A stretch of DNA of 32,000 nt from Candidatus Saccharimonadota bacterium (GCA_003516025.1 CP023991.1:721374-753373), one strand, 5' to 3'; positions 873-29,669 are shown, numbered from the stretch's first letter. Program-made: numbers and translations. Notes: generated by a model from the sequence alone, not told the origin.

Positions 873-1889
873 TCAGGCGGCCTTGTCCTGCGACTGGGTG
901 CGGGCGATCATCCTCTCGTTGATGTCGTGGGTGTTGGCGACGACGGGCATGTCGAGACCTCTGGAGCTGGCGAGCGCCATGATGGCGATCACCTCTTTGG
1001 GCAGGCACGCACCGGCGTAGGGACCCAGGTTGCGGGTGCCGTACTTCGGGTTGCGCAGCCCTTCGCAGGACACCTCGGAGATCTTGTAGATCAGTGCGAT
1101 CTCCGGGTCGGAGACGCGGTGGAGGCGGCAGAGCTGCTCGAACTCGCGGTTGAAGGCGATGCGGATGCCCTCGAAGAGGTCGGGTGCCGCGAAGACGGCC
1201 TGTATCTGCTGCTCGGTGAAGCCGTTGTCCTCCAGGTGCATGCGCAACTGGTTGCAGAACGAGATCTTCACCGCGTTGTAGACGTTGTGGTGGTACTTCT
1301 GCAGCTCGCCGGCGACGATGGAGGTCCACCGCATGGGGACGCCGAACGGCTCGTAGAGCTTCTCCATGACCTCCACGGAACGAACGTCCTGAGGGTGGTG
1401 GCCGATGGTCACGACCCGGGGGTTGAGGCTGTCAGCCAGCGGGTTCTTGTCGTCCGTCGGGTTCTCCGCACGGAGGTACTCGGGGTTGTAGACGACACCG
1501 AAGTCGACGCCGGCCTTCTTGCCCGAGATGTCCTCCATCTGTTGAGTCAGCTCCCTGGTCATGCCGGGGATCTGGGTGCAACGGAAGACGACGACCGGGT
1601 AGTGGGAGTCGTTGATCCCGCTGAGCTTGTCGGCGATGTCGTCGGCGGCGGCCCGGAGGTAGCTGGTGTCCTGGCCCTGGGGCGTGGACGGGGTCGGCAC
1701 CGAGACGAAGATCAGGTCCACGTGGTGGATGTTGACCTGGTCGGGACGGACGGCGTAGAGGCCGCGGCCCATGAGCTGCCAGATCCGCTCCTGCGAGACG
1801 TCGACGAACGTGACGTCGTGTCCGCGCTGGAGGAAAGCCTGGCCCGTGGCGGAACCGACGACACCGGAACCGTAGATGGCGATGTGCAT
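873..1889 (-). CDS. UDP-glucose/GDP-mannose dehydrogenase family protein (short form, 338 aa), high-GC xenolog with catalytic Cys intact
   Basis: N-terminal Rossmann motif MHIAIYGSGVVGSATG. Central-domain signature GELQKYHHNVYNAVKISFCNQLR. Active-site box YAGACLPKE, with the Cys codon at 1005-1007. RBS AAAGAGG lies 8 nt upstream of the ATG. Third codon positions are almost all G/C, unlike the flanks. Confidence 0.75.
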   Translation of the reverse strand: MHIAIYGSGVVGSATGQAFLQRGHDVTFVDVSQERIWQLMGRGLYAVRPDQVNIHHVDLIFVSVPTPSTPQGQDTSYLRAAADDIADKLSGINDSHYPVVVFRCTQIPGMTRELTQQMEDISGKKAGVDFGVVYNPEYLRAENPTDDKNPLADSLNPRVVTIGHHPQDVRSVEVMEKLYEPFGVPMRWTSIVAGELQKYHHNVYNAVKISFCNQLRMHLEDNGFTEQQIQAVFAAPDLFEGIRIAFNREFEQLCRLHRVSDPEIALIYKISEVSCEGLRNPKYGTRNLGPYAGACLPKEVIAIMALASSRGLDMPVVANTHDINERMIARTQSQDKAA

Positions 1890-2006
1890 GAGAGCACCTC
1901 TTTCGAGAGATCACTGCGGGTGGATTGGTGGCCACACTAGATGATGTAAAGAGCAAAATCACTCGGATTACATCAGAGCTGATGTGCGGGTGTGACTTGC
2001 ATTAGC

Positions 2007-2035
2007 AAACTAACATACTTTTGCTTTTGTGTCAA
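2007..2035 (-). promoter_or_regulatory. Sigma70-type promoter for 873-1889 (TTGACA-N17-TGtTAGTTT)
   Basis: On the minus strand, TTGACA (2030-2035), a 17-nt spacer, then extended -10 TGTTAGTTT (2007-2015). This gives a ~110-nt leader containing an ACATCA-GCTC-TGATGT hairpin. Confidence 0.4.
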
Positions 2036-2088
2036 TTATAGTCTATGTATCTTAAGCACTATAACAGTATAAATTTAATTACTCATTA

Positions 2089-2117
2089 TTGACTCTCTTA
2101 CAAAAAAATGTTAGTTT
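2089..2117 (+). promoter_or_regulatory. Sigma70-type promoter for the polysaccharide operon (TTGACT-N17-TGtTAGTTT)
   Basis: TTGACT at 2089-2094, a 17-nt spacer, then TGTTAGTTT at 2109-2117. The 10-mer ATGTTAGTTT is identical to the one in the divergent promoter at 2007-2016. Confidence 0.4.
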
Positions 2118-2162
2118 AATGTAAGTTAGCGCTCATTGTTACGCAGGCGCTCGCATATAATT

Positions 2163-3362
2163 ATGAAATTAATTTTTAACTGGATACAGCACCGGCTCAG
2201 GCAGCATCGCCTAGCTCTTATATGGAGCTGCTTTTTTGCAATTATACTTAGTATTATAATTGCCAGCGTAATATATAACGCAGCCCCCCGAAGTAGCTCG
2301 GAGTCGAATCAGCGGTATCGGCTTACCAATCCATTCGGCAGCCAGCCATCATATGGCAGTACCTATTATGTTAGCCCTAATGGCAACGATAAAAATGATG
2401 GCCTTGCAGAGAAAACTGCCTTTAAAAGTATCAACAAAGCGGTTAGCTACGCAGAGGCTGGAAATACCATTCAGCTCGCTGACGGTTTATATCGTCAAAC
2501 TATCTCCAGCGTTAAATCCGGCACACCAGGTAAGCCAATTATCCTTCGCGGCTCCCAAGCCGCCGTTGTAAATGGCTCGCCTGATGATAGCCGCATTGTT
2601 GAAGTACGCCATAATTACATTACTCTGGACGGCTTTACAATTGACGGCGCAAGCGGTGATGCGCGGCAACCGGAAGATTTTCAAGATAAATTGCTCTACG
2701 TAATTGGCAATGCGCCGCGGCAAGGCGTTGAGGGGCTGCACGTTACAAATATGCTCATCCAAAATGGTGGCGGTGAATGCGTACGGCTGCGTTATTACGC
2801 GGCTAACAATGAAATTGATCATTCGACTATCCGTAATTGCGGTATCTACGATTTTCGATTTGATGCAGGCAGTAAAAATGGAGAGGGCATATATATCGGC
2901 ACAGCCCCCGAGCAGACGGGTGACGGTAAAAATCCGACTTCAGATGTCGATACGTCCCATGACAATCATATCCATAACAATATTATCGAAACACATGGCA
3001 ATGAATGCGTTGATATAAAAGAAGGCTCCCACGACAATATCGTTGAGCATAACACTTGCCGATACCAGTCAGATCCTGAATCCGGCGGCTATGATGCCCG
3101 TGGCAGCAACAATACGATTCGCTATAACGTAAGTGAGCATAACAAAGGAGCGGGTGTCCGGCTTGGTGGCGACAAGAAAAGCGATGGCATCAATAATAAA
3201 GTGTACGGTAATACGCTCACCGATAATAAAAATGGTGTAATGAAAATCACCCGGTTACCACAGAGTACTGTGTGCGGTAACAAAAGCTCCGCCAACGGAA
3301 ACGGTGATAATACCGTCCGTAATATTGACGTTACAAAGAAATGTAATAATTCTATTGATTAA
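2163..3362 (+). CDS. Membrane-anchored right-handed parallel beta-helix protein (pectate-lyase fold, DUF1565-like)
   Basis: N-terminal TM segment LALIWSCFFAIILSIIIASVIY. This is followed by YYVSPNGNDKNDGLAEKTAFKSINKAVSYAEAGNTIQLADGLY, typical of beta-helix glycan-active proteins, and repeated N-x-I-x-x-N turns. The start is ambiguous: ATG 2163 is preferred over the track's TTG 2136. Confidence 0.6.
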   Translation: MKLIFNWIQHRLRQHRLALIWSCFFAIILSIIIASVIYNAAPRSSSESNQRYRLTNPFGSQPSYGSTYYVSPNGNDKNDGLAEKTAFKSINKAVSYAEAGNTIQLADGLYRQTISSVKSGTPGKPIILRGSQAAVVNGSPDDSRIVEVRHNYITLDGFTIDGASGDARQPEDFQDKLLYVIGNAPRQGVEGLHVTNMLIQNGGGECVRLRYYAANNEIDHSTIRNCGIYDFRFDAGSKNGEGIYIGTAPEQTGDGKNPTSDVDTSHDNHIHNNIIETHGNECVDIKEGSHDNIVEHNTCRYQSDPESGGYDARGSNNTIRYNVSEHNKGAGVRLGGDKKSDGINNKVYGNTLTDNKNGVMKITRLPQSTVCGNKSSANGNGDNTVRNIDVTKKCNNSID

Positions 3363-3389
3363 TTGTCAATAATAGTGTATTGTTATACT
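3363..3389 (+). promoter_or_regulatory. Possible internal extended -10 promoter
   Basis: TTGTCA (3363-3368), a 15-nt spacer, then TGtTATACT (3381-3389). An AGGAG RBS follows at 3411-3415, 9 nt before ATG 3425. Confidence 0.35.
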
Positions 3390-3424
3390 AACTATTCGAC
3401 AAGTATACATAGGAGCAGACCCGT

Positions 3425-4249
3425 ATGAAAATAGCAGTAATTGGTAGTGGTATTGCAGGCCAGGCAGTTGGTACGGCTTTAAGCAAACATGACAACAGTA
3501 TTATATTCGTAGACGTTATTAAAGCAGCGCTTCAGCCCTTACAGACTAAAGGCTATACGACCGAACTTGCCGATACCTATACCAAAATCAACACTGATAT
3601 TACCATGTTCTGCGTACCTGCGTCCCAGTTAGAAAAAGCTGTACGCTCCTTTGCCGCCCGTCTGAAAAACCATAATAAATACCACACTATCGTCATATGT
3701 TCGAGCATTGTACCAAACACTAGCCGGAAAAAGATACTACCACTTATCGAGTCGCTGTCTGGCAAAAAGGCTGCTATCGACTTCGGCATTGTGGTCCAAC
3801 CATTGTATGCGCGCTCAGAGACAATTAATCCAGATTCTGCCCGTCCATGGTTCATCCTTATTGGTGAACTAGATAAAAAATCCGGCGACACCATTGCACG
3901 GTTGTATACAAAATTCGATGCTCCGTTGGAACGCATGAGCCTGGAAGAGGCCGAGTTCCAAAAGTACGTCCACAATATGTTTAACGCAACTAAAATCAGC
4001 TTTTTTAATGAATTGCGGGTTATTGCCGTAAAAGAAGGCTGGAACGATACTGCTATTTTTGAAGCGGTAGCTGAAAGCTCGGAAGCAATTTGGAACCCTC
4101 TCTATGGCATACATGACAAAGGCGGTTTCAGTGGTACTGGCATTGAAGCTGACGCCGAAACCCTCGTTGATTGGGCGCAAGCGAACCAGTACGGCGTCGG
4201 TATTATTAAAGCCGTGCTAGCTGCGAACAAGGGCACTCACCGTGATTGA
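3425..4249 (+). CDS. UDP-glucose/GDP-mannose dehydrogenase family paralog (274 aa) lacking the catalytic cysteine
   Basis: MKIAVIGSGIAGQAVG Rossmann motif and EFQKYVHNMFNATKISFFNELR central signature. It is colinear with the 873-1889 product (GKKAAIDFGIVVQP vs GKKAGVDFGVVYNP). The active-site box reads FSGTGIEAD where the xenolog has YAGACLPKE, so Cys is replaced by Gly at codon 4139-4141 and Lys by Ala. The 3' end overlaps the GT2 start by 8 nt. Confidence 0.7.
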   Translation: MKIAVIGSGIAGQAVGTALSKHDNSIIFVDVIKAALQPLQTKGYTTELADTYTKINTDITMFCVPASQLEKAVRSFAARLKNHNKYHTIVICSSIVPNTSRKKILPLIESLSGKKAAIDFGIVVQPLYARSETINPDSARPWFILIGELDKKSGDTIARLYTKFDAPLERMSLEEAEFQKYVHNMFNATKISFFNELRVIAVKEGWNDTAIFEAVAESSEAIWNPLYGIHDKGGFSGTGIEADAETLVDWAQANQYGVGIIKAVLAANKGTHRD

Positions 4250-5846
4250 CGCCGAATTACTTAAAACCATCCTGCTGTATATTCCGCTTTCGCTGATTGG
4301 CGCTTGGCGCTGGACATTCTGGCTGGTTCGCCGTATAACCGCCGAGTTTTACAACCCACAAGTTCAACCGTGGCCTGCCGACGAGGTAAAGCCAACCACC
4401 AGCATTGTTACGCCAGTCTATAACGAGGACCCGATTGTTTTTGAAGAAGCAATGCAGTCCTGGATTGCAAATGGAGTCGATGAAATTGTTGCTGTTATCG
4501 ATAAGTCGAATACGCGGCATATTGTTGATTTCCAGAGGCGCTACGTCGATAATCCAACCGGTGAAACAGTTTGCCGTGTTGTAGTTACGCCGAAACCCGG
4601 CAAACGGGCCGCTCTCTGTGACGGTATTGAGGCAGCCACTGGTGATCTCATAGTTTTAGTTGATTCGGATACTATTTGGAGCAGCGATGTACTAGAGAAA
4701 ACTTTGCCATATTTCCAAAATGAACGAATTGGCGGCGCCACCGTTGCGCAGCGAATCCAAAATCCATATAACGTTGCTAATGTGATGTTCGACATCCTCC
4801 TATACTCGCGATATAAAGAAGAAGTACCGTTTCTACTTGCTACTGGCCGTGCCTTTAACACATTGTCTGGCCGTACGGCATTTTACCGACGCGAAGCAAT
4901 ATTTAATGACACGTACGACAACATGCATGCGCTTCGCCACGAATTTTTCCTAGGGACGCGTGGCATTTCAGGGGATGACAAGCGTTTGACACATTTAATT
5001 GTTGAACAGGGTTGGCACACCGCCTTTGTAAAAGGGCCGGTAGTACTGACACCAGGCCTGAATTCGGTGAAAAAGTTCTTAAAGCAGCGACTTCGCTGGA
5101 CACGCAATTCATGGCGCGCCGACCTGAGAGCCGTTGGCCGCGGTTGGGTATTCTCCCATCCTGCATTAGCGATATTTATGATCGACCGCTTCATACAACC
5201 AGTGTTTATGTTAATTGGTCCGGTAGTCATGACGTTCGCGCTCATCAACCATGAATGGTTATTCGCGGGCATTTTACTGGCATGGTGGTTCATTAGCCGT
5301 ATTATTCGAGTCTTCGGTTACTTCAAACAATACCCGAAGCGGCTAATATATCTGCCGGCTTATATTTTGTACGGTTATGCTAATGCCGTTATCAAAATAT
5401 ATGCCTTGGCTACCTTAATTGAGCACAGCTGGGCGACACGCTGGAATAAGGCTCGCGCAAAGCGCAAGAGCATTTTCCGCAAAGCATACACTGTTGTCAG
5501 CGGTTACGCAGCGATTGTCGTATTTATGGTACTAATCGTACAAATCGTATTATCGCTACGTACCCAAGCCGGCGCTGACATTACCGTACCAGCACCAGTC
5601 GATGCCACGGCGTTCAATCAGCAAGTTCAAAACGTAACTCAGCTACAAAAACAACCGCCAGCACCGCAAGGCTACATTGATCCTACTGTCGTTAAAGAAT
5701 ATACGGTTCAGTCTGGCGACACTTTATCCGGCCTGTCGATCCAATTCAATATGACCGTCCAAGACATAAAGCGGTTCAATACTTTGCGCACTAATGCCTT
5801 AATACCAGGACAAGTCATTTTTTACTATATGGCAACACAAGGATAA
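4242..5846 (+). CDS. Processive family-2 glycosyltransferase (hyaluronan/chitin synthase/NodC/Alg8-like) with C-terminal LysM domain
   Basis: GTG start with an AAGGG RBS. TM segments are present at the N-terminus and after the catalytic domain. Motifs: VDSDT (4662-4673), FYRRE, GDDKRLT and Q-R-L-R-W (5085-5099, the QxxRW processivity motif). C-terminal LysM YTVQSGDTLSGLSIQFNMTVQDIKRFNTLRTNALIPGQVIF lies at about 5700-5828. Confidence 0.8.
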   Translation: MIDAELLKTILLYIPLSLIGAWRWTFWLVRRITAEFYNPQVQPWPADEVKPTTSIVTPVYNEDPIVFEEAMQSWIANGVDEIVAVIDKSNTRHIVDFQRRYVDNPTGETVCRVVVTPKPGKRAALCDGIEAATGDLIVLVDSDTIWSSDVLEKTLPYFQNERIGGATVAQRIQNPYNVANVMFDILLYSRYKEEVPFLLATGRAFNTLSGRTAFYRREAIFNDTYDNMHALRHEFFLGTRGISGDDKRLTHLIVEQGWHTAFVKGPVVLTPGLNSVKKFLKQRLRWTRNSWRADLRAVGRGWVFSHPALAIFMIDRFIQPVFMLIGPVVMTFALINHEWLFAGILLAWWFISRIIRVFGYFKQYPKRLIYLPAYILYGYANAVIKIYALATLIEHSWATRWNKARAKRKSIFRKAYTVVSGYAAIVVFMVLIVQIVLSLRTQAGADITVPAPVDATAFNQQVQNVTQLQKQPPAPQGYIDPTVVKEYTVQSGDTLSGLSIQFNMTVQDIKRFNTLRTNALIPGQVIFYYMATQG

Positions 5847-5850
5847 CACT

Positions 5851-7515
5851 ATGAAGAATAAAACCCCTCAACAGTCTGTCGCAAAATCTAATACAAAGAA
5901 GTTCCGGCGCCTGGGCAACCTTCGCCCGGTAGTACTCATTTTGCTCATTCCACTGGCGGTCGGAGCGTTAACAATCGGAGCTGTTGCGTCCGGTCTGTAC
6001 TACAATAGCGTCGCGCGGTTAGGCAGCGACCGGCTCATAACCCAGAACTGGCAGAGCGCCAACGATTCACTCGCCGCCCAACAACCAAAGTACGAGCGCA
6101 AATTCGCATATTACCAGGTTAAAGCCGGCCAAACCCTGGAAGATCTGTCTGAGTATTTTAGTGTCACCCCCAGCACTCTAGCTTCCATGAATCCGGGCAA
6201 TATTACAACTGGAACGACTGTCAAAATTCCTGCCCTCGAAGCGCCATATACGCCAAAAAACGGCCCAAACGGCCTGCTTGGTACTGCAGCTGTCACTGAT
6301 GAAGCTGGCGTAATCCATATTACGAGTAAGTACGGTTACGGGACACATATCGATACCAATATACCTGAAATTGCCAGTTTCCTGGCGCCATACAATGCGA
6401 TTGAACAGATCAGTCCAAAAGTATTCCGCTTTAACCGTCCAGTTTCAATTGACGGCGACATTCGGATAGACATAACAACCGCTACTGTCAGCCGCATTGA
6501 GCTTCGCAGCGCGCCGAACGACATCACCTGCCTGTGTTTTGACCAGTCAGCCGCATTGATTGACGGCGTTACGATTACTTCTTACGATCCCACAACAAAA
6601 CAAGCCGATGACAACTACTCAGACGGACGCAGTTTTGTGCGCATGAAAAACGGCCGCATGGATACCATAAATACTACTTTCACGCGTCTCGGCAATGGCA
6701 TCGACAGTGCTGTTCCAGGGTCACCATTTTATGGCACACAACAAGACGGCGGCGTCTACGGCGTATCATGGCGTATTTCAAGCATGACGCTGGGGAAGCA
6801 AATTACTACCGGCTGGGTAGAGGGCTCAACTTTTGAACACAACTACTTTGGTGCCTACACCTTTGGTGCCTCAGGCATGCTCTGGAGGGGTAATACATTC
6901 GACGCAAATCACGTATACGGCCTTGATCCTCACGATGACAGTAATAACGCACTCATTGAAAACAATATTTTCAAAAACAATGAAAAGCACGGCTTTATCG
7001 TGTCGAAGCGCTGCAACTACAATATTATCCGTAACAACCTCTCGCTGGACAATAAAGTTAACGGCTTTATGTTACACCAGGACTCAGCCTACAATTTAAT
7101 TGAGAACAACGTCTCAGCTGGCAATACCGATAACTACGTTATTTACGAGTCCAACTACAACACCATTAGTAACAATAAAAGTTATAACGCCAGTTCAAGC
7201 CATATCCGCGTTAATCAATCTTCACACAACACTTTCATAACCGGCAACCAGACATACGGCAATGGACGGGGCATATTCCTTTACGACGGTGTTACAAATA
7301 CGCTAATCAGTCAAAACACTATCCAGGGAAGCGGCAAAAAATTACAGACAAATAACGCTCAGAACACTGTCTTCCTCAATAATAAGGTTAGCGACATTCA
7401 CTATGACATTAATGAAGGCGACCGGATGATTTTCGGCCCGAATACCGCCAAAACTGTCGACATGACCATACCGGCAGACCAGGCTTTACTAACGGCATTC
7501 GAGAAGAAGCAATAA
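5851..7515 (+). CDS. Membrane-anchored LysM + right-handed beta-helix protein, mannuronan C5-epimerase (AlgG/AlgE)-like
   Basis: N-terminal TM segment, then LysM YYQVKAGQTLEDLSEYFSVTPSTLASMNPGNITTGTTVKIP (6109-6231). The block YGLDPHDDSNNALIENN...KHGFIVSKRCN carries the DPHD motif (6925-6936) that is conserved in AlgG. Many NN-x-x-x-N beta-helix turns. RBS AAGGA lies 7 nt upstream. Confidence 0.6.
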   Translation: MKNKTPQQSVAKSNTKKFRRLGNLRPVVLILLIPLAVGALTIGAVASGLYYNSVARLGSDRLITQNWQSANDSLAAQQPKYERKFAYYQVKAGQTLEDLSEYFSVTPSTLASMNPGNITTGTTVKIPALEAPYTPKNGPNGLLGTAAVTDEAGVIHITSKYGYGTHIDTNIPEIASFLAPYNAIEQISPKVFRFNRPVSIDGDIRIDITTATVSRIELRSAPNDITCLCFDQSAALIDGVTITSYDPTTKQADDNYSDGRSFVRMKNGRMDTINTTFTRLGNGIDSAVPGSPFYGTQQDGGVYGVSWRISSMTLGKQITTGWVEGSTFEHNYFGAYTFGASGMLWRGNTFDANHVYGLDPHDDSNNALIENNIFKNNEKHGFIVSKRCNYNIIRNNLSLDNKVNGFMLHQDSAYNLIENNVSAGNTDNYVIYESNYNTISNNKSYNASSSHIRVNQSSHNTFITGNQTYGNGRGIFLYDGVTNTLISQNTIQGSGKKLQTNNAQNTVFLNNKVSDIHYDINEGDRMIFGPNTAKTVDMTIPADQALLTAFEKKQ

Positions 7516-7528
7516 GGGAACCCCCGTT

Positions 7529-8899
7529 ATGGAAGCTACGGCATTATTCTGGAAACGACCGTACACCGATCATACAAAGCGTATGGTGTTGGGTTTATTG
7601 CTGGTAATATTGGGGAGCCTGTTGTTTGTTACCGGTCACAGTGACGCAACGACGGCCGCTTCATGCCAAAAGAGTGTTACCCGCTATGCCGGTACTACCA
7701 ATACCATTTATATCGCAGGTGCCGATGTAGTGTGTACTCCAGCAGACATTCAGGTTATGTATCCGTCAAGCATGAAACACCCAAAAGCACGAACTTTCAT
7801 GCTCAAGTCAAACATCGTACTCCAACAAGGCGCGACACTGATCATTAAAGGCGGAACAGCTTCCGATGCTACCACCGATGAATTCCGTATGATGTCCAAC
7901 AATAATAATATGACCAACAATTTCGTAAACATAACTGCCGATTACGGCACCGTCCATATCACTAATACTAAGGTTAAGTCATGGGATGAAGCTACCAAAG
8001 CCGCCGATACAGAATACGGTGACATATATAAGCGGGCGTTTATACGCGTCCGTTCACGGGCAATCGGAAACGTACAAAACATATCACGTATGAATATCGT
8101 TAATAGCGATATTGGATATTTAGGATATTATGGTGCCGAAAGCTACGGCCTTGCATGGAAAGTCATGGACAGTGCGTTTGATAAAGTGGATGTACTGGGA
8201 AACATTACCAATAGTCGTATCCATAATAACTATTTTGGTGTGTATACCTTTGGCGCCTTCGGTATGGTTATCAATCAAAATGAATTCGATCATAACATTA
8301 AATATGGTCTTGATCCGCACGATGACTCGGATTCATTGAAGATCACCAATAACTCTTCACACCACAACGGTGACCATGGCATTATATGCTCGCAGCGCTG
8401 TGACAACTTACTAATTAGCGGCAATAACTCCTATAGCAATGCCGGGCACGGCATCATGCTGCATCGTTCAGTTGACAACTCAATAATCGAAAACAACACG
8501 GTTGCCTATAACGGCGACACCGGCATCGCGCTGTTTGAAAGTAATCACAATATCATCCGAGGCAATCTGGTAAAAAGTAACAAAAACGGTATCCGCCTGT
8601 CAGTTGGGTCATCATACAATTTATTTGAAAATAATATTATAGAAAAGACTAAAGAAATTGCAATCTACACCTATAAGGGAAGCGACACACCCGTACGTAG
8701 TGATGGTATAAATGCCGGCAATGCCTGGAAGACAAATACCGTTACCGGCACCGGTTTACTGGTACTGCAACTTACTGCTACACATGGTGATCAGTTTAAA
8801 AGTAATAGTTTTGCTGGAAATCCATTAGCCGGTTATGACACCAACCGAGTTACTAACACATCGTTTGTTAGTAACTCAACCGACTTAAACAATCTCTAG
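7529..8899 (+). CDS. Membrane-anchored/secreted right-handed beta-helix protein, second AlgG/AlgE-like C5-epimerase homolog
   Basis: N-terminal hydrophobic anchor MVLGLLLVILGSLLFV. YGLDPHDDSDSLKITNN...DHGIICSQRCDN with DPHD at 8312-8323. It is a paralog of the 5851-7515 product (NNYFGVYTFGAFGM vs HNYFGAYTFGASGM). Confidence 0.6.
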   Translation: MEATALFWKRPYTDHTKRMVLGLLLVILGSLLFVTGHSDATTAASCQKSVTRYAGTTNTIYIAGADVVCTPADIQVMYPSSMKHPKARTFMLKSNIVLQQGATLIIKGGTASDATTDEFRMMSNNNNMTNNFVNITADYGTVHITNTKVKSWDEATKAADTEYGDIYKRAFIRVRSRAIGNVQNISRMNIVNSDIGYLGYYGAESYGLAWKVMDSAFDKVDVLGNITNSRIHNNYFGVYTFGAFGMVINQNEFDHNIKYGLDPHDDSDSLKITNNSSHHNGDHGIICSQRCDNLLISGNNSYSNAGHGIMLHRSVDNSIIENNTVAYNGDTGIALFESNHNIIRGNLVKSNKNGIRLSVGSSYNLFENNIIEKTKEIAIYTYKGSDTPVRSDGINAGNAWKTNTVTGTGLLVLQLTATHGDQFKSNSFAGNPLAGYDTNRVTNTSFVSNSTDLNNL

Positions 8900-8916
8900 C
8901 CGACCGAGCTGTGATA

Positions 8917-8956
8917 ACGTAAAATAGGTCTCATAGAAGACTTATTTTACGTTTTT
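8917..8956 (+). terminator. Rho-independent terminator of the synthase-epimerase operon
   Basis: 15-bp stem ACGTAAAATAGGTCT (8917-8931) / AGACTTATTTTACGT (8938-8952) with one G-U pair that only works on the plus strand. The loop is CATAGA, followed by a T-run to 8956. Confidence 0.75.
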
Positions 8957-8985
8957 GCCAATTAATTTCTCTTATGCTTTATACT
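8955..8985 (+). promoter_or_regulatory. Promoter of the PL7 lyase gene, leaderless layout
   Basis: TTGCCA (8955-8960), a 19-nt spacer (long), then TATACT (8980-8985), then exactly 7 nt to ATG 8993. There is no SD. Confidence 0.4.
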
Positions 8986-8992
8986 ACTGCGT

Positions 8993-9931
8993 ATGAAGTT
9001 CAGCCGTATCCAGATATGTAGCCTGCTAAGCTTTATCGTAATCATATTCCTGATTAGTGCCGTAGCAGTCTACAACAACTATGGCACCATACCATTATCA
9101 CCGGTTACCGTTACCTCACAGAAAATAAATAATCCACAGATTGCAACTCAACCGGCAACATCCCAGACTACTACGAATAAGCAAACTGCACCGCCAAGCG
9201 CTTCCCAGTCTAGTTCCGCCGCCGCCCCATCAGTAGAAATAAAACCTCAGCCTGTACGGCCTGTAATCAATGCGCCATCCCAACTTATTGACCTGTCTAA
9301 CTGGTATGTAACACTTCCAACCGACAATGATGGCAATGGAAGGGCTGATGAAATTCACCAGCCCTCATTGGCAGGCTTCAGTGTGGCACATTATTTTATG
9401 CTTAACGATGCCCGCAATGGCATCATTTTCCAAGCTCATGCCGGAGGCGCTACAACATCAGGCTCACATTATCCACGGAGTGAACTCCGAGAAATGGCTG
9501 ACAACGGCACAGTCAAAGCGGCATGGTCCAATACCAGTGGCAGTCATAGTATGACCGTAACGGAAGCAATTACCCATTTACCATCTGCTAAGCCGGAGGT
9601 TGTAGCGGCCCAGATACATGATGCTAACGATGACGTCATTATGATACGGCTGGAAGGACGGCGCTTATTCGTAGAAAGCGATGATGGGAAAAATAGCGGT
9701 GACCTCGATACAGCCTACACACTTGGCACTACCTTTACAGTTCGTATTCTTGCCGAAAATGGCCACATATACGTTTCATACAATGGCGTAGCTAAAGTTG
9801 ATCTTGCTCGGAGCGGCTCAGGATTCTATTTTAAAGCCGGCTGTTACACGCAATCCAACACTACAAAAGGCGACAGCGGCGATGCGTACGGCCAGGTTAT
9901 TATGTATGGTTTAAGCGTTACACACTCGTAG
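8993..9931 (+). CDS. Polysaccharide lyase family 7 (alginate/polyuronate lyase-like), membrane-anchored with S/T/P/Q-rich linker
   Basis: All three PL7 signature blocks are present. R-S-E-L-R-E lies at 9476-9493, Q-I-H at 9611-9619 and Y-F-K-A-G-C-Y-T-Q at 9827-9853. N-terminal anchor LLSFIVIIFLISAVAV. Confidence 0.75.
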   Translation: MKFSRIQICSLLSFIVIIFLISAVAVYNNYGTIPLSPVTVTSQKINNPQIATQPATSQTTTNKQTAPPSASQSSSAAAPSVEIKPQPVRPVINAPSQLIDLSNWYVTLPTDNDGNGRADEIHQPSLAGFSVAHYFMLNDARNGIIFQAHAGGATTSGSHYPRSELREMADNGTVKAAWSNTSGSHSMTVTEAITHLPSAKPEVVAAQIHDANDDVIMIRLEGRRLFVESDDGKNSGDLDTAYTLGTTFTVRILAENGHIYVSYNGVAKVDLARSGSGFYFKAGCYTQSNTTKGDSGDAYGQVIMYGLSVTHS

Positions 9932-24479: not shown

Positions 24480-24508
24480 ATAATACAATATTATTAATTG
24501 TTTTGCAA
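24480..24508 (-). promoter_or_regulatory. Host-type promoter for 24228-24440
   Basis: On the minus strand, TTGCAA (24503-24508), a 17-nt spacer, then TATTAT (24480-24485). Confidence 0.5.
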
Positions 24509-24511
24509 TGA

Positions 24512-24519
24512 TGTGGCTT
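24512..24519. repeat. Target-site duplication, left copy (TGTGGCTT)
   Basis: An 8-bp direct repeat immediately outside IRL. It is identical to 26553-26560. Confidence 0.8.
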
Positions 24520-24531
24520 GGCAATTATACC

Positions 24532-24560
24532 TTGACAACAAGTAAGTAGTACCGTATACT
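24532..24560 (+). promoter_or_regulatory. Transposase promoter inside IRL, leaderless layout
   Basis: TTGACA (24532-24537), a 17-nt spacer, TATACT (24555-24560), then 7 nt to ATG 24568. Confidence 0.6.
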
Positions 24561-24567
24561 GTTAAGT

Positions 24568-25464
24568 ATGAGTCAGAAGTTCACACTTACAGAGTTTTTA
24601 AACCGCTATCCTACTAATGATGCATGTCTTGAGCACATCAAGCAATTACGCTGGGGCTCGGCTACTATTTGCCCAAAATGTGAGCGTAAAAGTAATTTTT
24701 ATAAGGTTAAAGGACGTACTGCCTACGCTTGCCAGTTCTGCGGTCATCACATGTACCCTCTAGCTGGTACTATATTTGATAAATCTTCTACACCGCTTAC
24801 ATCATGGTTTTATGCTATCTACCTCATGGCACAAACTCGGTCAGGTATTAGCGCAAAACAGTTAGAACGTGAACTAGGAGTTACCTATAAGACTGCTTGG
24901 CGTATGTTTAAGCAAATACGCCTGTTATTAAGCGATGACAGCGACATAAACAATTTACAAGGCACTGTCGAAGTAGATGAAACTTATATACACCCTGATA
25001 AAAAGAAAAACACTCGCATTAAGACCAATAGTCGCTTTTACGGTCAGTCCCAAATACTTATGGGTATGGTTGAGCAGGGTGGACGAGCTCGTATTAAACA
25101 CATACAAAGCACCGGACGGCGTGAGCTCATTGGACAAATCAAAGGTAACGTACAAGTATCAGCTACGGTATACTCCGACGGATTCCGTTCATACCGAGCT
25201 CTTCCAAAACATGGTTATACTCACGCTTGGGTAGACCATAAAGCTCATCAGTATCTTGTTGCTGGCATTGGTACTCAAAACGTAGAAAACCTTTGGAGCC
25301 AGTTCAAACGTGGCATGTACGGTGTATACCGCCACTGTGACCCTAAATACTTACAGTCCTATGCTAATGAATATGCGTTTCGCTACTCACACCGCAATAC
25401 TCCAGCACACATGTTTGACCTTTTTCTTGGTCAGATTGCGAGCACGAAGTTTGTTAGGGGTTAG
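24568..25464 (+). CDS. IS1595-family transposase (N-terminal zinc ribbon + DDE domain)
   Basis: CPKCERKSNFYKVKGRTAYACQFCGHH zinc ribbon, an HTH-like ISAKQLERELGVTYKTAWRM, then VEVDETYI followed by a DDE-type core. The product is 298 aa. Confidence 0.85.
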   Translation: MSQKFTLTEFLNRYPTNDACLEHIKQLRWGSATICPKCERKSNFYKVKGRTAYACQFCGHHMYPLAGTIFDKSSTPLTSWFYAIYLMAQTRSGISAKQLERELGVTYKTAWRMFKQIRLLLSDDSDINNLQGTVEVDETYIHPDKKKNTRIKTNSRFYGQSQILMGMVEQGGRARIKHIQSTGRRELIGQIKGNVQVSATVYSDGFRSYRALPKHGYTHAWVDHKAHQYLVAGIGTQNVENLWSQFKRGMYGVYRHCDPKYLQSYANEYAFRYSHRNTPAHMFDLFLGQIASTKFVRG

Positions 25465-26467
25465 AGGCTTTATTTAGGGCTCGATCAAAATCGTCTTCCG
25501 CACCGTTGCGACCGCCTGCGTCTAAGAACTTATGTAGTTTATCGCCGGAGCTCTCTTTAGGAGTATCTTCGACATTGAGATGTAGCTTGGTTTGACTGCC
25601 AAAACGTGGAAATGCCTCGAGCATATGGTCTTCAAACTCTCGCCAGTCTCTAGATATACGCATGAGCACAATAAGTTGGGATAGATGCTTTTCAAGGTTG
25701 GGGTTGCCGACATTTATCGTAAGGAATTGATGATGCTTGTGAGCTCGGTATTTCTTATCATCGAGTACAGGGTTCTTCTTACGGAGCTCCTCAAGTACTC
25801 CGTCAGGTAGGAGCTCGTATACAAGCTGGTTAGTCAGTTTACCGACCTGCTGGTTACGTTTTTGTGTGTGAGCTTTAAACTCCCAGCCTTTGAGCCGGTA
25901 TATCTGTTGGTAAAACTCATTTGGAAACCGGCGTACCCATGGTTGGAGCTCTTCTTCGATATAAGCGGCAAGTATTATTTGGAGCTCATCTTTATCACGT
26001 TCCGCTTGGTAGCCGGTAGCTTCATCAACGAGTGCCGTAATACCGACCTTAGCAAGACTACGGACAATAATTTCACTGGCTACTGCTAAGTGTTGTTGCT
26101 GTTTTACGAGCTTTTCATCGGTGCGGGCTCGAAGATATACATCACATACCTGTGGCAATATATCAGCCTTAAAGCCTTTTCGTACCGTCTTACCGCTCTT
26201 AGACAAGTATTCAAACTCGGTGAGCTCCTTTTGTAAGTCTGCACTGATATAAGGTTGTAGGTTCTGTGCGTCAATAAAACTTGGAAACCCTTGTACACGA
26301 GTAGTTTCGGATAGGGCTCGTCCACGTTTTGTACGTCCGAACGCTCGGAACATGCCGTTTCGGGTTATGACCCGTGAACCGTCTTCAAGTACCGCAACAG
26401 TAAGCGTTACGTTACCTATTTGTAATTTTCCCTCATGTGTAGCCTTTGGTGGCTGCTTGTCGCTCAT
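25454..26467 (-). CDS. P63C domain-like protein (phage-associated), passenger gene of the IS
   Basis: The N-terminal GKLQIGNVTLTVAVLEDGSRVITRNGMFRAFGRTKRG matches my recollection of P63C-domain proteins. GAGGG RBS lies 6 nt upstream. The gene is convergent with the transposase and overlaps it by 11 nt. Confidence 0.5.
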   Translation of the reverse strand: MSDKQPPKATHEGKLQIGNVTLTVAVLEDGSRVITRNGMFRAFGRTKRGRALSETTRVQGFPSFIDAQNLQPYISADLQKELTEFEYLSKSGKTVRKGFKADILPQVCDVYLRARTDEKLVKQQQHLAVASEIIVRSLAKVGITALVDEATGYQAERDKDELQIILAAYIEEELQPWVRRFPNEFYQQIYRLKGWEFKAHTQKRNQQVGKLTNQLVYELLPDGVLEELRKKNPVLDDKKYRAHKHHQFLTINVGNPNLEKHLSQLIVLMRISRDWREFEDHMLEAFPRFGSQTKLHLNVEDTPKESSGDKLHKFLDAGGRNGAEDDFDRALNKASNP

Positions 26468-26493
26468 ATAATACCCTCGCTTAATATGAGCCT

Positions 26494-26523
26494 ATCATAA
26501 CGCAAGGTCTTACTTGTTGTCAA
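26494..26523 (-). promoter_or_regulatory. Promoter of the P63C gene inside IRR
   Basis: On the minus strand, TTGACA (26518-26523), an 18-nt spacer, then TATGAT (26494-26499). It shares the 15-mer TTGACAACAAGTAAG with the transposase promoter. Confidence 0.45.
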
Positions 26524-28355: not shown

Positions 28356-29669
28356 ATGACAAAAATAATGCTCGTCGAAGACGATAACAACCTACGCGAG
28401 ATTTATGAAGCCCGCCTGGCAGCCGAAGGCTATGACATCGTCTCCTCCGCCGATGGTGAGGCCGCGCTGGCGCTCGCCTCCAAAGAGCATCCCGATATGA
28501 TTATTTCCGACGTCATGATGCCAAAAATCAGTGGGTTCGAAATGCTTGATATCCTGCGCAATACCGACTCGTTAAAGAACGTAAAGATTATCATGCTGAC
28601 CGCTCTCGGCCAAGCCGAAGACAACGCCCGCGCCAACGCGCTTGGTGCCGATAAGTATCTTGTCAAGTCACAGGTAACCCTGGAAGACATCGTTAAGGCG
28701 ACCCACGAGTTGCTCGACACGCCAGCAGAAGCTGCCGCGGCTCCGGAAGAAACAGCTGTGCCCGAACCGGAGATTACTATTCCAGAGCCAGCTATCGTGC
28801 TGCCGCCCGCCCCTGAAGTAGCTTCAACGCCCGTAGCAACGGCAGAGCCCGAGGTGGTTGCTGCGCCCGCTCCAATGCCTGAGCCAGTGGCTGAACCACA
28901 GTTCCAGCCTGTAGCTACTCCCGAGATTCCGGTCGTCGAACCACCCGCGCAACCTACAGATATTGCCGCGACCATCCAAATGCCGTCAGTACAGTTTTCA
29001 GGCACCGACGACAACGTGGCTACGGCAACCGCGACTGACAACTCCGCGCAGTCTACTGCCGACGAAGAAGCTGCCGTCCAGGCCCAGATTAACGCCTTCG
29101 CGGCAACTGAAGCAGCAGCGCCAGTTCCTGAGCCAGTGGCGCCTGCTCCACAACCCGTTGAGGTTCCCGCGGCCGTCGCTCCAGCGCCCGCTCCAATGCC
29201 TGAACCAGTGGCTGAACCACAGTTCCAGCCAGCACCCGCGCCTGAGATAATATCGCCGGCTCCGGTGGTTCCTCAGCCAGCACAAGTACCAGAACCTGTT
29301 CAGGCCGCGCCAGCGCCCGTAGCAGCAGCCGCTCCACAACCACAGCCCCCGGCCGTGGCACAGCAACCGCAGATGCAAGCCGGGCCGGTAACCTCCGGCG
29401 AAGCGCCGCAAGAAGCAGTCCAGCCAATTCCGGACCAGATCCGAAAGAAGGTTATCGAACCACTGTCAACCGACGCGACGAAGCCGGACATCAATCAGTT
29501 ACTGGCACTTGAAGAAGCTAAAACAGCCGCTCAACAGGCAGCAGCAGCCCCGGTTATACAGCCCGTTCAGCCGGCCCCGGCAATAGCACAACCGCCAGTA
29601 CAGCCCGTACCCGGCCAGCAGCCGCCACAAGCCAATACCGGTATCGATCCACACAGCATGGCATTGTAA
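28356..29669 (+). CDS. Response regulator receiver domain fused to a ~310-aa Pro/Ala/Gln-rich low-complexity tail (no recognisable output domain)
   Basis: The REC domain has MLVEDD, MIISDVMMPKISGFE, LTALG and a K in YLVKS. After about residue 125 the sequence is only P/A/E/V/Q-rich repeats. Confidence 0.8.
   Translation: MTKIMLVEDDNNLREIYEARLAAEGYDIVSSADGEAALALASKEHPDMIISDVMMPKISGFEMLDILRNTDSLKNVKIIMLTALGQAEDNARANALGADKYLVKSQVTLEDIVKATHELLDTPAEAAAAPEETAVPEPEITIPEPAIVLPPAPEVASTPVATAEPEVVAAPAPMPEPVAEPQFQPVATPEIPVVEPPAQPTDIAATIQMPSVQFSGTDDNVATATATDNSAQSTADEEAAVQAQINAFAATEAAAPVPEPVAPAPQPVEVPAAVAPAPAPMPEPVAEPQFQPAPAPEIISPAPVVPQPAQVPEPVQAAPAPVAAAAPQPQPPAVAQQPQMQAGPVTSGEAPQEAVQPIPDQIRKKVIEPLSTDATKPDINQLLALEEAKTAAQQAAAAPVIQPVQPAPAIAQPPVQPVPGQQPPQANTGIDPHSMAL
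28863..28909 (+). repeat. 47-nt intragenic direct repeat, copy 1 (encodes APAPMPEPVAEPQFQP)
   Basis: GCGCCCGCTCCAATGCCTGAGCCAGTGGCTGAACCACAGTTCCAGCC matches 29184-29230 at 46 of 47 positions. The offset is 321 nt, which is in frame. Confidence 0.9.
29184..29230 (+). repeat. 47-nt intragenic direct repeat, copy 2
   Basis: It is identical to 28863-28909 except for one G-to-A difference. Confidence 0.9.

Follow-up and report, generated by a model that had tools for sequence, protein, structure and literature searches.

A predicted dehydrogenase pseudoenzyme and its intact high-GC homologue in a putative alginate-like gene cluster of a Candidatus Saccharimonadota bacterium

Two related dehydrogenase genes were analyzed in a 32,000-nucleotide (nt) stretch of the genome of a Candidatus Saccharimonadota bacterium (GCA_003516025.1 CP023991.1:721374-753373), referred to below as the window. 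Open reading frame 1 (ORF1; 873..1889, minus strand) encodes 338 amino acids (aa) and is presumed to specify an active, short-form enzyme resembling GDP-mannose dehydrogenase (GMD); the GC content at its third codon positions (GC3) is 0.93. ORF2 (3425..4249, plus strand) encodes a short-form paralogue of 274 aa that is predicted to be catalytically dead and belongs to a clade of proteins without the catalytic cysteine. On balance we favor, with moderate confidence, an account in which ORF2 is an old pseudoenzyme that coexists with a live, divergently transcribed GMD in an alginate-like gene cluster, and in which the live partner was recently exchanged.

Loss of the catalytic cysteine in ORF2

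The products of ORF1 and ORF2 are colinear, with 33% identity across 230 aa (BLASTP, E = 7e-34), and the shared motifs quoted in the original prediction, which had been made from the DNA sequence, were found in them: SGKKAGVDFGVV and SGKKAAIDFGIV, and ELQKYHHNVYNAVKISFCNQLR and EFQKYVHNMFNATKISFFNELR. Both matched PF03721, the N-terminal NAD-binding Rossmann domain (E = 5e-24 for ORF1 and 1e-12 for ORF2), with the GxGxxG motif present as GSGVVG and GSGIAG, respectively, along with Asp30, and both matched PF00984, the central helical dimerization domain (E = 4e-11 and 2.5e-13). AlphaFold2 models of the two proteins were confident, with a predicted local distance difference test score (pLDDT) of 92.7 for ORF2 and 93.5 for ORF1, and a long central helix is visible in each. 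The Pfam matches bear out the proposed membership of the UDP-glucose/GDP-mannose dehydrogenase family. However, the top solved relative of both ORFs was AlgD (1mfz; E = 1e-28 for ORF2 and 6e-23 for ORF1), with UDP-glucose dehydrogenases (UGDHs) ranking lower, and by these comparisons the best-matching enzyme is GMD, not UGDH. We infer that GDP-mannose is the substrate. The ORF2 model superimposes on AlgD (1mfz) with a TMq of 0.89 and a root-mean-square deviation of 2.8 Å.

Residues of the active site are given here in AlgD numbering (Thr124, Glu157, Glu161, Lys210, Asn214, Cys268, Lys271 and Asp272). In HMMER alignments to solved AlgD (1mfz) and UGDH (3vtf and 2y0e), the segment GFSGTGIEAD of ORF2 falls on the active-site box GFGGSC(L/F)PKD. 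The degenerate box (4139..4150, plus strand) therefore has Gly239 (GGC, 4139-4141) in place of Cys268 and Ala242 (4148-4150) in place of Lys271, just as had been predicted, while the Asp272 equivalent is retained. Further changes replace Glu157 with Leu, Glu161 with Ser and Thr124 with Ser, such that the catalytic set of ORF2 reads S-L-S-K-N-G-A-D, with Cys, Lys271, Glu157 and Glu161 gone. Also kept are the NAD-binding GxGxxG motif and the equivalents of Asp30, Lys210 and Asn214. The YAGACLPKE segment of ORF1 aligns with the same box and has the Cys, which is Cys295 (codon 1005..1007, minus strand, computed from the ORF start at 1889). Its catalytic set is T-E-(D)-K-N-C-K-E, in which Asp272 is conservatively changed to Glu and the rest is intact (Thr, Glu157, Lys210, Asn214, and Cys295 in GACLPKE). 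Lacking the nucleophile, ORF2 should be incapable of the four-electron oxidation, with neither a thiohemiacetal nor a thioester intermediate expected to form. Dinucleotide binding is probably retained, and sugar-nucleotide binding may be as well. The central observation of the original prediction, that the resident copy has lost its nucleophile and is retained as an intact, conserved protein next to a copy with intact catalytic residues, thus stands.

It was also correct that both proteins are short at the C-terminus. They end only 35-43 residues past the Cys column, a Pfam search gave no match in either ORF to PF03720, the C-terminal nucleotide-sugar-binding domain, and ORF2 aligned to positions 1-295 of the 413 positions of the TIGR03026 profile, with both ORFs scoring (154.9 and 119.8 bits) under its cut-off of 189.8. 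This is no defect but the norm of the family. Searches with ORF1 and ORF2 return hundreds of proteins that are 286-326 aa long and likewise have just the N-terminal and central domains, and ORF1, with its 338 aa and Cys295, fits the short-form layout (~290-320 aa, with the Cys box ~35-60 residues from the C-terminus). In a scan of species-representative genomes, the short form was found in Actinomycetota, many phyla of the Candidate Phyla Radiation (CPR)/Patescibacteria, and Chloroflexi, and the full catalytic set Thr-Glu-(Glu/Ala/Gln)-Lys-Asn-Cys-Lys-Asp is present in nearly all single-copy loci. Two short GMDs of the brown alga Saccharina, SjGMD1 and SjGMD2 (320 and 315 aa), have their catalytic Cys in GGxCLPKDV at residues 259-267 (Cys262 of the 320 aa in SjGMD1) and were active on GDP-mannose when assayed (PMC4782291). 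The family-wide catalytic set and the published activity of the algal enzymes rule out the notion that the short form is a truncation artefact or, as the original prediction had considered, no oxidoreductase at all. Lack of the C-terminal domain is normal for this large family, and oxidoreductase function is not called into question by it. Live proteins of the 300-type end in a conserved tail (consensus LGKNxxVRVNYLxxIxV) that is not kept in the clade of ORF2 and is absent from ORF2 itself (residues 262-274); this tail may replace the missing C-terminal domain or serve in docking.

The Cys-less clade and the two-copy layout

Alignment to the family hidden Markov model (HMM) and to characterized UGDH and AlgD sequences confirmed the Cys column. 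It is occupied by Cys in 216 of 226 short-form proteins, and the ten exceptions are all of the ORF2 type, at ~300 aa. Nine of these ten, ORF2 included, form one exclusive clade in a neighbor-joining (NJ) tree rooted on AlgD, referred to below as the dead clade. Because the column holds Cys so widely, and in all 215 live proteins outside the dead clade (none of the nine members has it), the loss in ORF2 is real and not an artefact of alignment. The residues at the former Cys site in the nine members are G, A, S, S, G, P, P, L and S, and identities within the clade are 48-76%. ORF2 scored 388 bits against a profile of the other eight dead proteins and 370 against a profile of 111 live 300-type proteins, which supports its membership independently of the tree. 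Outside the dead clade, a change from Cys to Gly was seen independently twice more, at L056 8001-8858 (Actinomadura rugatobispora; a 290-type protein reading TEAKNGND) and in P0003, a singleton metagenomic protein.

The comparison of the dead clade with the 215 live sequences was confined to columns of at least 85% conservation. Fifty-two such columns are kept and five are lost (Thr88, Pro262, Cys268, Pro270 and Lys271), and the damage is therefore centered on the Cys loop, to which four of the five belong. Among the kept features are GxGxxG, Asp30, the SGK..G.DFG loop, Pro156/Tyr158/Arg160, the Lys210/Asn214 helix, Asp272 and Asn297. The dN/dS comparison suggested at the outset could be carried through in part: synonymous divergence (dS) is saturated for almost all pairs, so that only nonsynonymous divergence (dN) is usable and no exact omega can be given, but between loci L002 and L004 the dN of the dead copy (0.21) resembles that of the live partner (0.17), the AlgG-like gene (0.17) and the DUF1565 gene (0.22). 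The dead copy appears to evolve as slowly as its neighbors, consistent with purifying selection at the protein level, and on this sequence evidence the dead clade is best described as a group of pseudoenzymes, not pseudogenes.

The gene arrangement of the window also recurs. A live dehydrogenase gene divergent from a DUF1565 gene, followed by a Cys-less copy overlapping the gene for a family 2 glycosyltransferase (GT2), is found in L002/L003, L004, L006 and L025 as well, so that an adjacent live copy is present at five of the six distinct dead-copy loci. Since the Cys-less clade and the two-copy layout are common to several lineages, inactivation predates the divergence of these lineages; the redundancy and the inactivation would both be old and lineage-wide. 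Where the in-operon copy is live (more than 100 loci), a second copy was seen only at L114, where it is a distant match (27% identity) ~4 kb away and both copies keep the Cys. The live protein most similar to ORF2 (P0002, 55% identity) comes from L008, a single-copy locus with no DUF1565 gene. One patescibacterial locus, L022 (23-3054), has a live divergent dehydrogenase gene next to DUF1565 and GT2 genes and is without an in-operon dehydrogenase; it could be the final stage, reached once the dead copy had gone, or else a different ancestral arrangement.

The stop of ORF2 overlaps the start of the GT2 gene by 8 nt (4242..4249, plus strand; GTGATTGA). This overlap is as originally described, and the GTG start of the GT2 gene is supported by an N-terminus, (V/M)IDAELLKTILLYIPLS, that matches those of ATG-started orthologues. 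However, overlaps of 4-14 nt between dehydrogenase and GT2 genes are also seen where the in-operon copy is live (L005). The overlap is therefore ancestral, and it gives no evidence of the scaffold role that had been read into it.

Origin of ORF1 and the surrounding gene cluster

The foreign composition claimed for the intact copy was confirmed. ORF1 has a GC content of 0.646 and a GC3 of 0.926, versus GC3 values of 0.38-0.64 for the 22 other ORFs of the window (mean 0.53, standard deviation 0.08; z = 5.1), and a high-GC island at ~850-1950 coincides with it. Its codon-position profile (0.62/0.39/0.93) equals that of dehydrogenase genes in actinobacterial loci of ~65% GC. The GC3 of the live partner gene at other two-copy loci is raised far less (0.72 vs ~0.40 in L006; 0.51-0.53 vs ~0.46 in L002 and L004). 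Identity between ORF1 and the positionally equivalent partner copies is only ~40-45%, compared with 48-72% for the flanking genes, a divergence ~1.7 times that expected. An insertion of ~35 aa (approximately residues 227-261; 1107..1211, minus strand) is unique to ORF1 and is modeled with high confidence as extra helices of the central domain. A rare change of Asp272 to Glu (8 of 226 sequences) is common to ORF1 and the Saccharibacteria clade of live partners; it occurs in 4/18 of this partner clade and in 2/2 for a further clade of 31 members. A Shine-Dalgarno sequence, AGAGGTG, lies 7 nt 5' of the ATG, and hairpins resembling terminators lie downstream, where no remnant of a donor GT2 gene was found. 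From these features, ORF1 is probably a recently imported homologue occupying the live-partner slot, a xenologous substitute. Because inactivation of the in-operon copy predates the divergence of the lineages, a subsequent exchange of the live partner is the better explanation for the signal of horizontal transfer in ORF1.

Identical DNA turns up in assemblies made independently (ENA, NCBI, JGI and Logan), contigs of ~1.0 Mb among them, and ORF1 is therefore no assembly artefact. Public gene calls take an antisense ORF at 855-1940 on the plus strand instead (361 aa, no Pfam match, GC content of 0.90 at first codon positions; L001 7431-8516), which is why ORF1 is missing from a collection of 15 billion proteins. 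This annotation failure hides what appears to be the live enzyme from protein databases. A gene with a GC3 of 0.93 in a reduced genome (~1 Mb, 51% GC) would be a clean example of recent import into a genome of the CPR type. Composition is heterogeneous elsewhere in the window too, with a GC content of 0.40-0.46 at 24500-26500 and 0.64 at 29000-29500, around a mean of 0.51.

Together with the genes downstream of ORF2, the two dehydrogenase genes appear to form a synthase-dependent, alginate-like polyuronate cluster of monoderm-bacterial type, extending from 873 to 9931. An AT-rich divergent intergenic region (1890..2135) separates ORF1 from the operon, whose first gene (2136..3362, plus strand) encodes a DUF1565/right-handed beta-helix protein found in every two-copy locus. 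After ORF2 comes a membrane GT2 protein of the processive-synthase type with a C-terminal LysM domain (4242..5846, plus strand), the presumed polyuronate (mannuronan) synthase; its closest solved relatives are hyaluronan synthases (HAS), its match to NodC is weak, and it is not Alg8-like. Two AlgG-like beta-helix proteins with the DPHD motif follow, the first (5851..7515, plus strand) also carrying LysM, and the second at 7529..8899 (plus strand). These putative mannuronan C5-epimerases 1 and 2 both contain GLDPHDDS, match the AlgG HMM under its equivalog cut-off (E = 4e-25 and 7e-32), and in the case of the second match AlgG in the PDB (4ozz, E = 1e-20). The tandem paralogues are ~30-35% identical to each other's orthologues, with LysM in the first only, and related loci have one or two such genes. 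The cluster ends with a protein of the PL7 alginate-lyase family (8993..9931, plus strand; PF08787 Alginate_lyase2, E = 1e-45), and no PilZ/Alg44-like gene was found in it. The polymer is presumed from this gene content to be alginate-like; a literature search for Saccharibacteria or Patescibacteria with alginate returned nothing relevant.

The order dehydrogenase, GT2, AlgG-like, often with PL7 or DUF1565 in addition, is kept in the majority of 80 genomes drawn from Actinomycetota, CPR bacteria and Chloroflexi, and the window thus belongs to a widespread, largely uncharacterized group of alginate-like clusters. Loci of ~65% GC labelled Aeromicrobium or Propionibacteriaceae (L005, L033, L044, L045, L047, L055, L084 and L088) carry a 300-type dehydrogenase, that of L005 being 66% identical to the Saccharibacteria protein P0002, and several of them hold multiple PL7 genes. 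The presence of 300-type genes in such loci points either to transfer of the whole cluster between phyla or to binning cross-talk between host and epibiont. At L147 (523-14763; Pseudarthrobacter oxydans), a cassette of dehydrogenase, GT2, AlgG-like and PL7 genes lies between IS21 and ISL3 transposases together with a resolvase, and the cassette can thus sit in a mobile context.

The favored history would begin from a widespread ancestral state with one live short GMD gene directly upstream of, and overlapping, the GT2 gene. In one lineage, probably of soil Saccharibacteria, a second live GMD of another subfamily would have arrived divergently upstream, next to the DUF1565 gene. With catalysis redundant, the in-operon copy would have lost its thiol nucleophile and the neighboring Pro-Lys, while purifying selection would ever since have preserved its fold, the motif for NAD binding and the majority of the sugar-site residues. 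In the present genome, the live partner would then have been exchanged for, or derived from, a homologue that until recently resided in a ~65% GC genome. As for the pathway, ORF1 would oxidize GDP-mannose to GDP-mannuronate, the GT2 protein would polymerize it and export the polymer, the synthase and the first epimerase-like protein would be anchored in the wall by their LysM domains, epimerization of the polymer would fall to the DPHD proteins, and its trimming to the PL7 and DUF1565 proteins. ORF2 would persist for a second, non-catalytic job tied to the synthase, be it binding of nucleotide sugar or NAD(H), hand-off, regulation, or service as a structural subunit. Such a task is suggested by the combination of constraints kept everywhere save in the Cys loop, no new conserved residues, and interchangeable, divergent partners; a ligand-binding or structural role with the synthase is the most likely one.

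Competing explanations and comparison with known systems

The original prediction held that an imported high-GC dehydrogenase replaced the resident copy in this very genome, which then lost its Cys and was kept as a scaffold for the GT2 protein. An intact ORF1 with a GC3 of 0.93, an ORF2 without Cys and Lys, and the overlap of ORF2 with the GT2 gene are all as this explanation would have them. However, all nine proteins of the clade are without the Cys and four other lineages have the two-copy layout, inactivation long precedes the arrival of a gene whose GC3 is still unameliorated, contradicting the required timing, and the overlap is found with live copies too. Replacement in this genome is therefore improbable. 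It is also rather unlikely that ORF2 is simply a decaying pseudogene whose frame is open only through translational coupling to the GT2 gene. ORF2 is admittedly the most deviant member of its clade, with differences at 29 of the 114 conserved columns, a length reduced by 26 aa, a deletion near the NAD site and loss of Glu157, and no conserved residues specific to the dead clade speak for a new function. Yet coupling alone would preserve an open frame and not a sequence, whereas the clade has retained 52 of the 57 columns that were scored as either kept or lost (50 of the 52 in ORF2 itself), its dN is comparable with that of functional neighbors where dS is saturated, and ORF2 is predicted to fold as confidently as noted above.

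Alternatively, ORF2 could still be an enzyme with altered chemistry, for instance by catalyzing a two-electron, NAD(H)-dependent redox step at C6 that interconverts GDP-mannose and the 6-aldehyde, or by using another nucleophile. UGDH mutants with Cys changed to Ala still interconvert alcohol and aldehyde, the NAD motif is kept throughout the clade, as are the residues equivalent to Lys210, Asn214 and Asp272, and Cys92 of ORF2 adjoins the Thr124-equivalent position. Cys92, however, is unique to ORF2 and no feature of the clade, and ORF2 is without Glu157 and Glu161. Moreover, members of the clade differ in what has taken the place of the Cys (G, A, S, P or L), and Lys271 and Pro270 have gone too, which leaves no conserved residue to serve as a replacement nucleophile. 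We regard residual chemistry of this kind as quite improbable. Very improbable is a last explanation, in which the high-GC ORF1 is an artefact of assembly or binning, or a silent passenger, with the uronic-acid donor made elsewhere. A single-gene island with sharp edges, passed over by public gene callers and lacking a close relative in the collections searched, might suggest as much, but the identical DNA in independent assemblies, the location of ORF1 at the live-partner position of related genomes, and its complete catalytic residues, Shine-Dalgarno sequence, terminators and confident predicted fold all argue otherwise.

Several observations weigh against the favored account of an old pseudoenzyme with a recently exchanged live partner. 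No relative of ORF1 above ~45% identity was found in the collections searched: the best match was 40% in a word-indexed protein search and 40-43% in a genome alignment scan, and metagenomes gave nothing with ORF1 alone and 39-43% with the partner-clade alignment. Its placement is likewise ambiguous, in that the NJ tree groups it with P0170 in the 31-member clade while subclade HMMs give 314, 299, 295 and 293 bits and no firm assignment. The NJ tree is itself a simple one, in which long-branch attraction could make the dead clade look more monophyletic than it is. At L007 (3894-4769), the dead-clade protein P0075 has lost even Asp272, and its contig of 11.9 kb holds no live partner. Live partners differ greatly from one another, sharing 32-45% identity, which makes a specific co-evolving heterodimer less likely, and no conserved residues particular to the dead clade were found that could point to a new interface. 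Within the clade, erosion has gone furthest in ORF2, which has also lost Glu157 and Thr124, has a deletion of ~9 aa after beta-4 near the NAD site and is without the C-terminal tail; in this genome it could have moved further towards losing its function, even the retained role. Finally, the link between the bacterial short form and the brown-algal GMDs rests on literature, not direct alignment.

A literature search turned up no description of a catalytically dead protein in the UDP-glucose/GDP-mannose dehydrogenase family. A conserved member that appears dead, selected and tied to a polysaccharide synthase is thus without precedent that we could find, and it would be a tractable starting point for studying functions of these dehydrogenases other than catalysis. 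A bolder version, to which we give only a small chance, is that the dead protein is an obligatory non-catalytic GMD subunit, acting as a sensor or hand-off adaptor on the mannuronan-type synthase of Saccharibacteria-like episymbionts, and that the catalytic subunit is exchangeable and has been replaced repeatedly by high-GC xenologues, probably from actinobacterial hosts. If true, this would be the first described pseudoenzyme of the UGDH/GMD family, and a case of modular replacement from host to epibiont within one pathway.

AlgD of Pseudomonas aeruginosa (1mfz/1muu/1mv8) is the best match to both ORFs in sequence and structure, although identity is only ~26%. Like AlgD, ORF1 has the SGKKAGVDFGV loop, NPE(F/Y)LR, the Lys210/Asn214 helix and GxCLPK(D/E), and both belong to pathways of the alginate type with an AlgG-like epimerase and a lyase. 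Unlike both ORFs, AlgD has 436 aa and the C-terminal Rossmann domain PF03720, and unlike AlgD, ORF2 is without Cys268, Lys271, Glu157 and Glu161. The Pseudomonas/Azotobacter alginate system follows the same logic as the window, with a dehydrogenase providing the donor, a membrane GT2, a DPHD beta-helix C5-epimerase and a lyase. The window differs in its HAS/NodC-like GT2 with LysM in place of an Alg8-like one, in a lyase of family PL7 and not PL5, in having no equivalents of Alg44, AlgK, AlgE and AlgX, and in its host, which is a monoderm or CPR bacterium.

The short GMDs of brown algae (Ectocarpus GMD, SjGMD1 and SjGMD2), compared here through the literature only, share the short build, with the Cys in GGxCLPKDV ~55 residues from the C-terminus. 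The Ectocarpus enzyme reportedly lacks the C-terminal domain of ~120 residues and behaves as a dimer. In contrast to the window, the algal enzymes are eukaryotic, are not in an operon with a synthase and have no reported dead paralogue. Their closest reported relative is a protein of Candidatus Woesebacteriota, a CPR lineage, at 40% identity (PMC11468063), and an actinobacterial origin has been proposed for the alginate-specific steps of brown algae (PMC8307928). The short GMD and DPHD epimerases of the cluster would be bacterial counterparts of the brown-algal alginate enzymes, and its GT2 protein, a constant neighbor in loci L005-L088, is a candidate for the class of non-Alg8 mannuronan synthases discussed for brown algae. 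In a wider sense, ORF1 and ORF2 resemble known pairs of enzyme and pseudoenzyme, in which catalytic residues are lost while the fold, ligand-site residues and purifying selection are kept and a live paralogue co-occurs. They are unlike typical co-evolving heteromers, however, in that the live partner is interchangeable and highly divergent between lineages.

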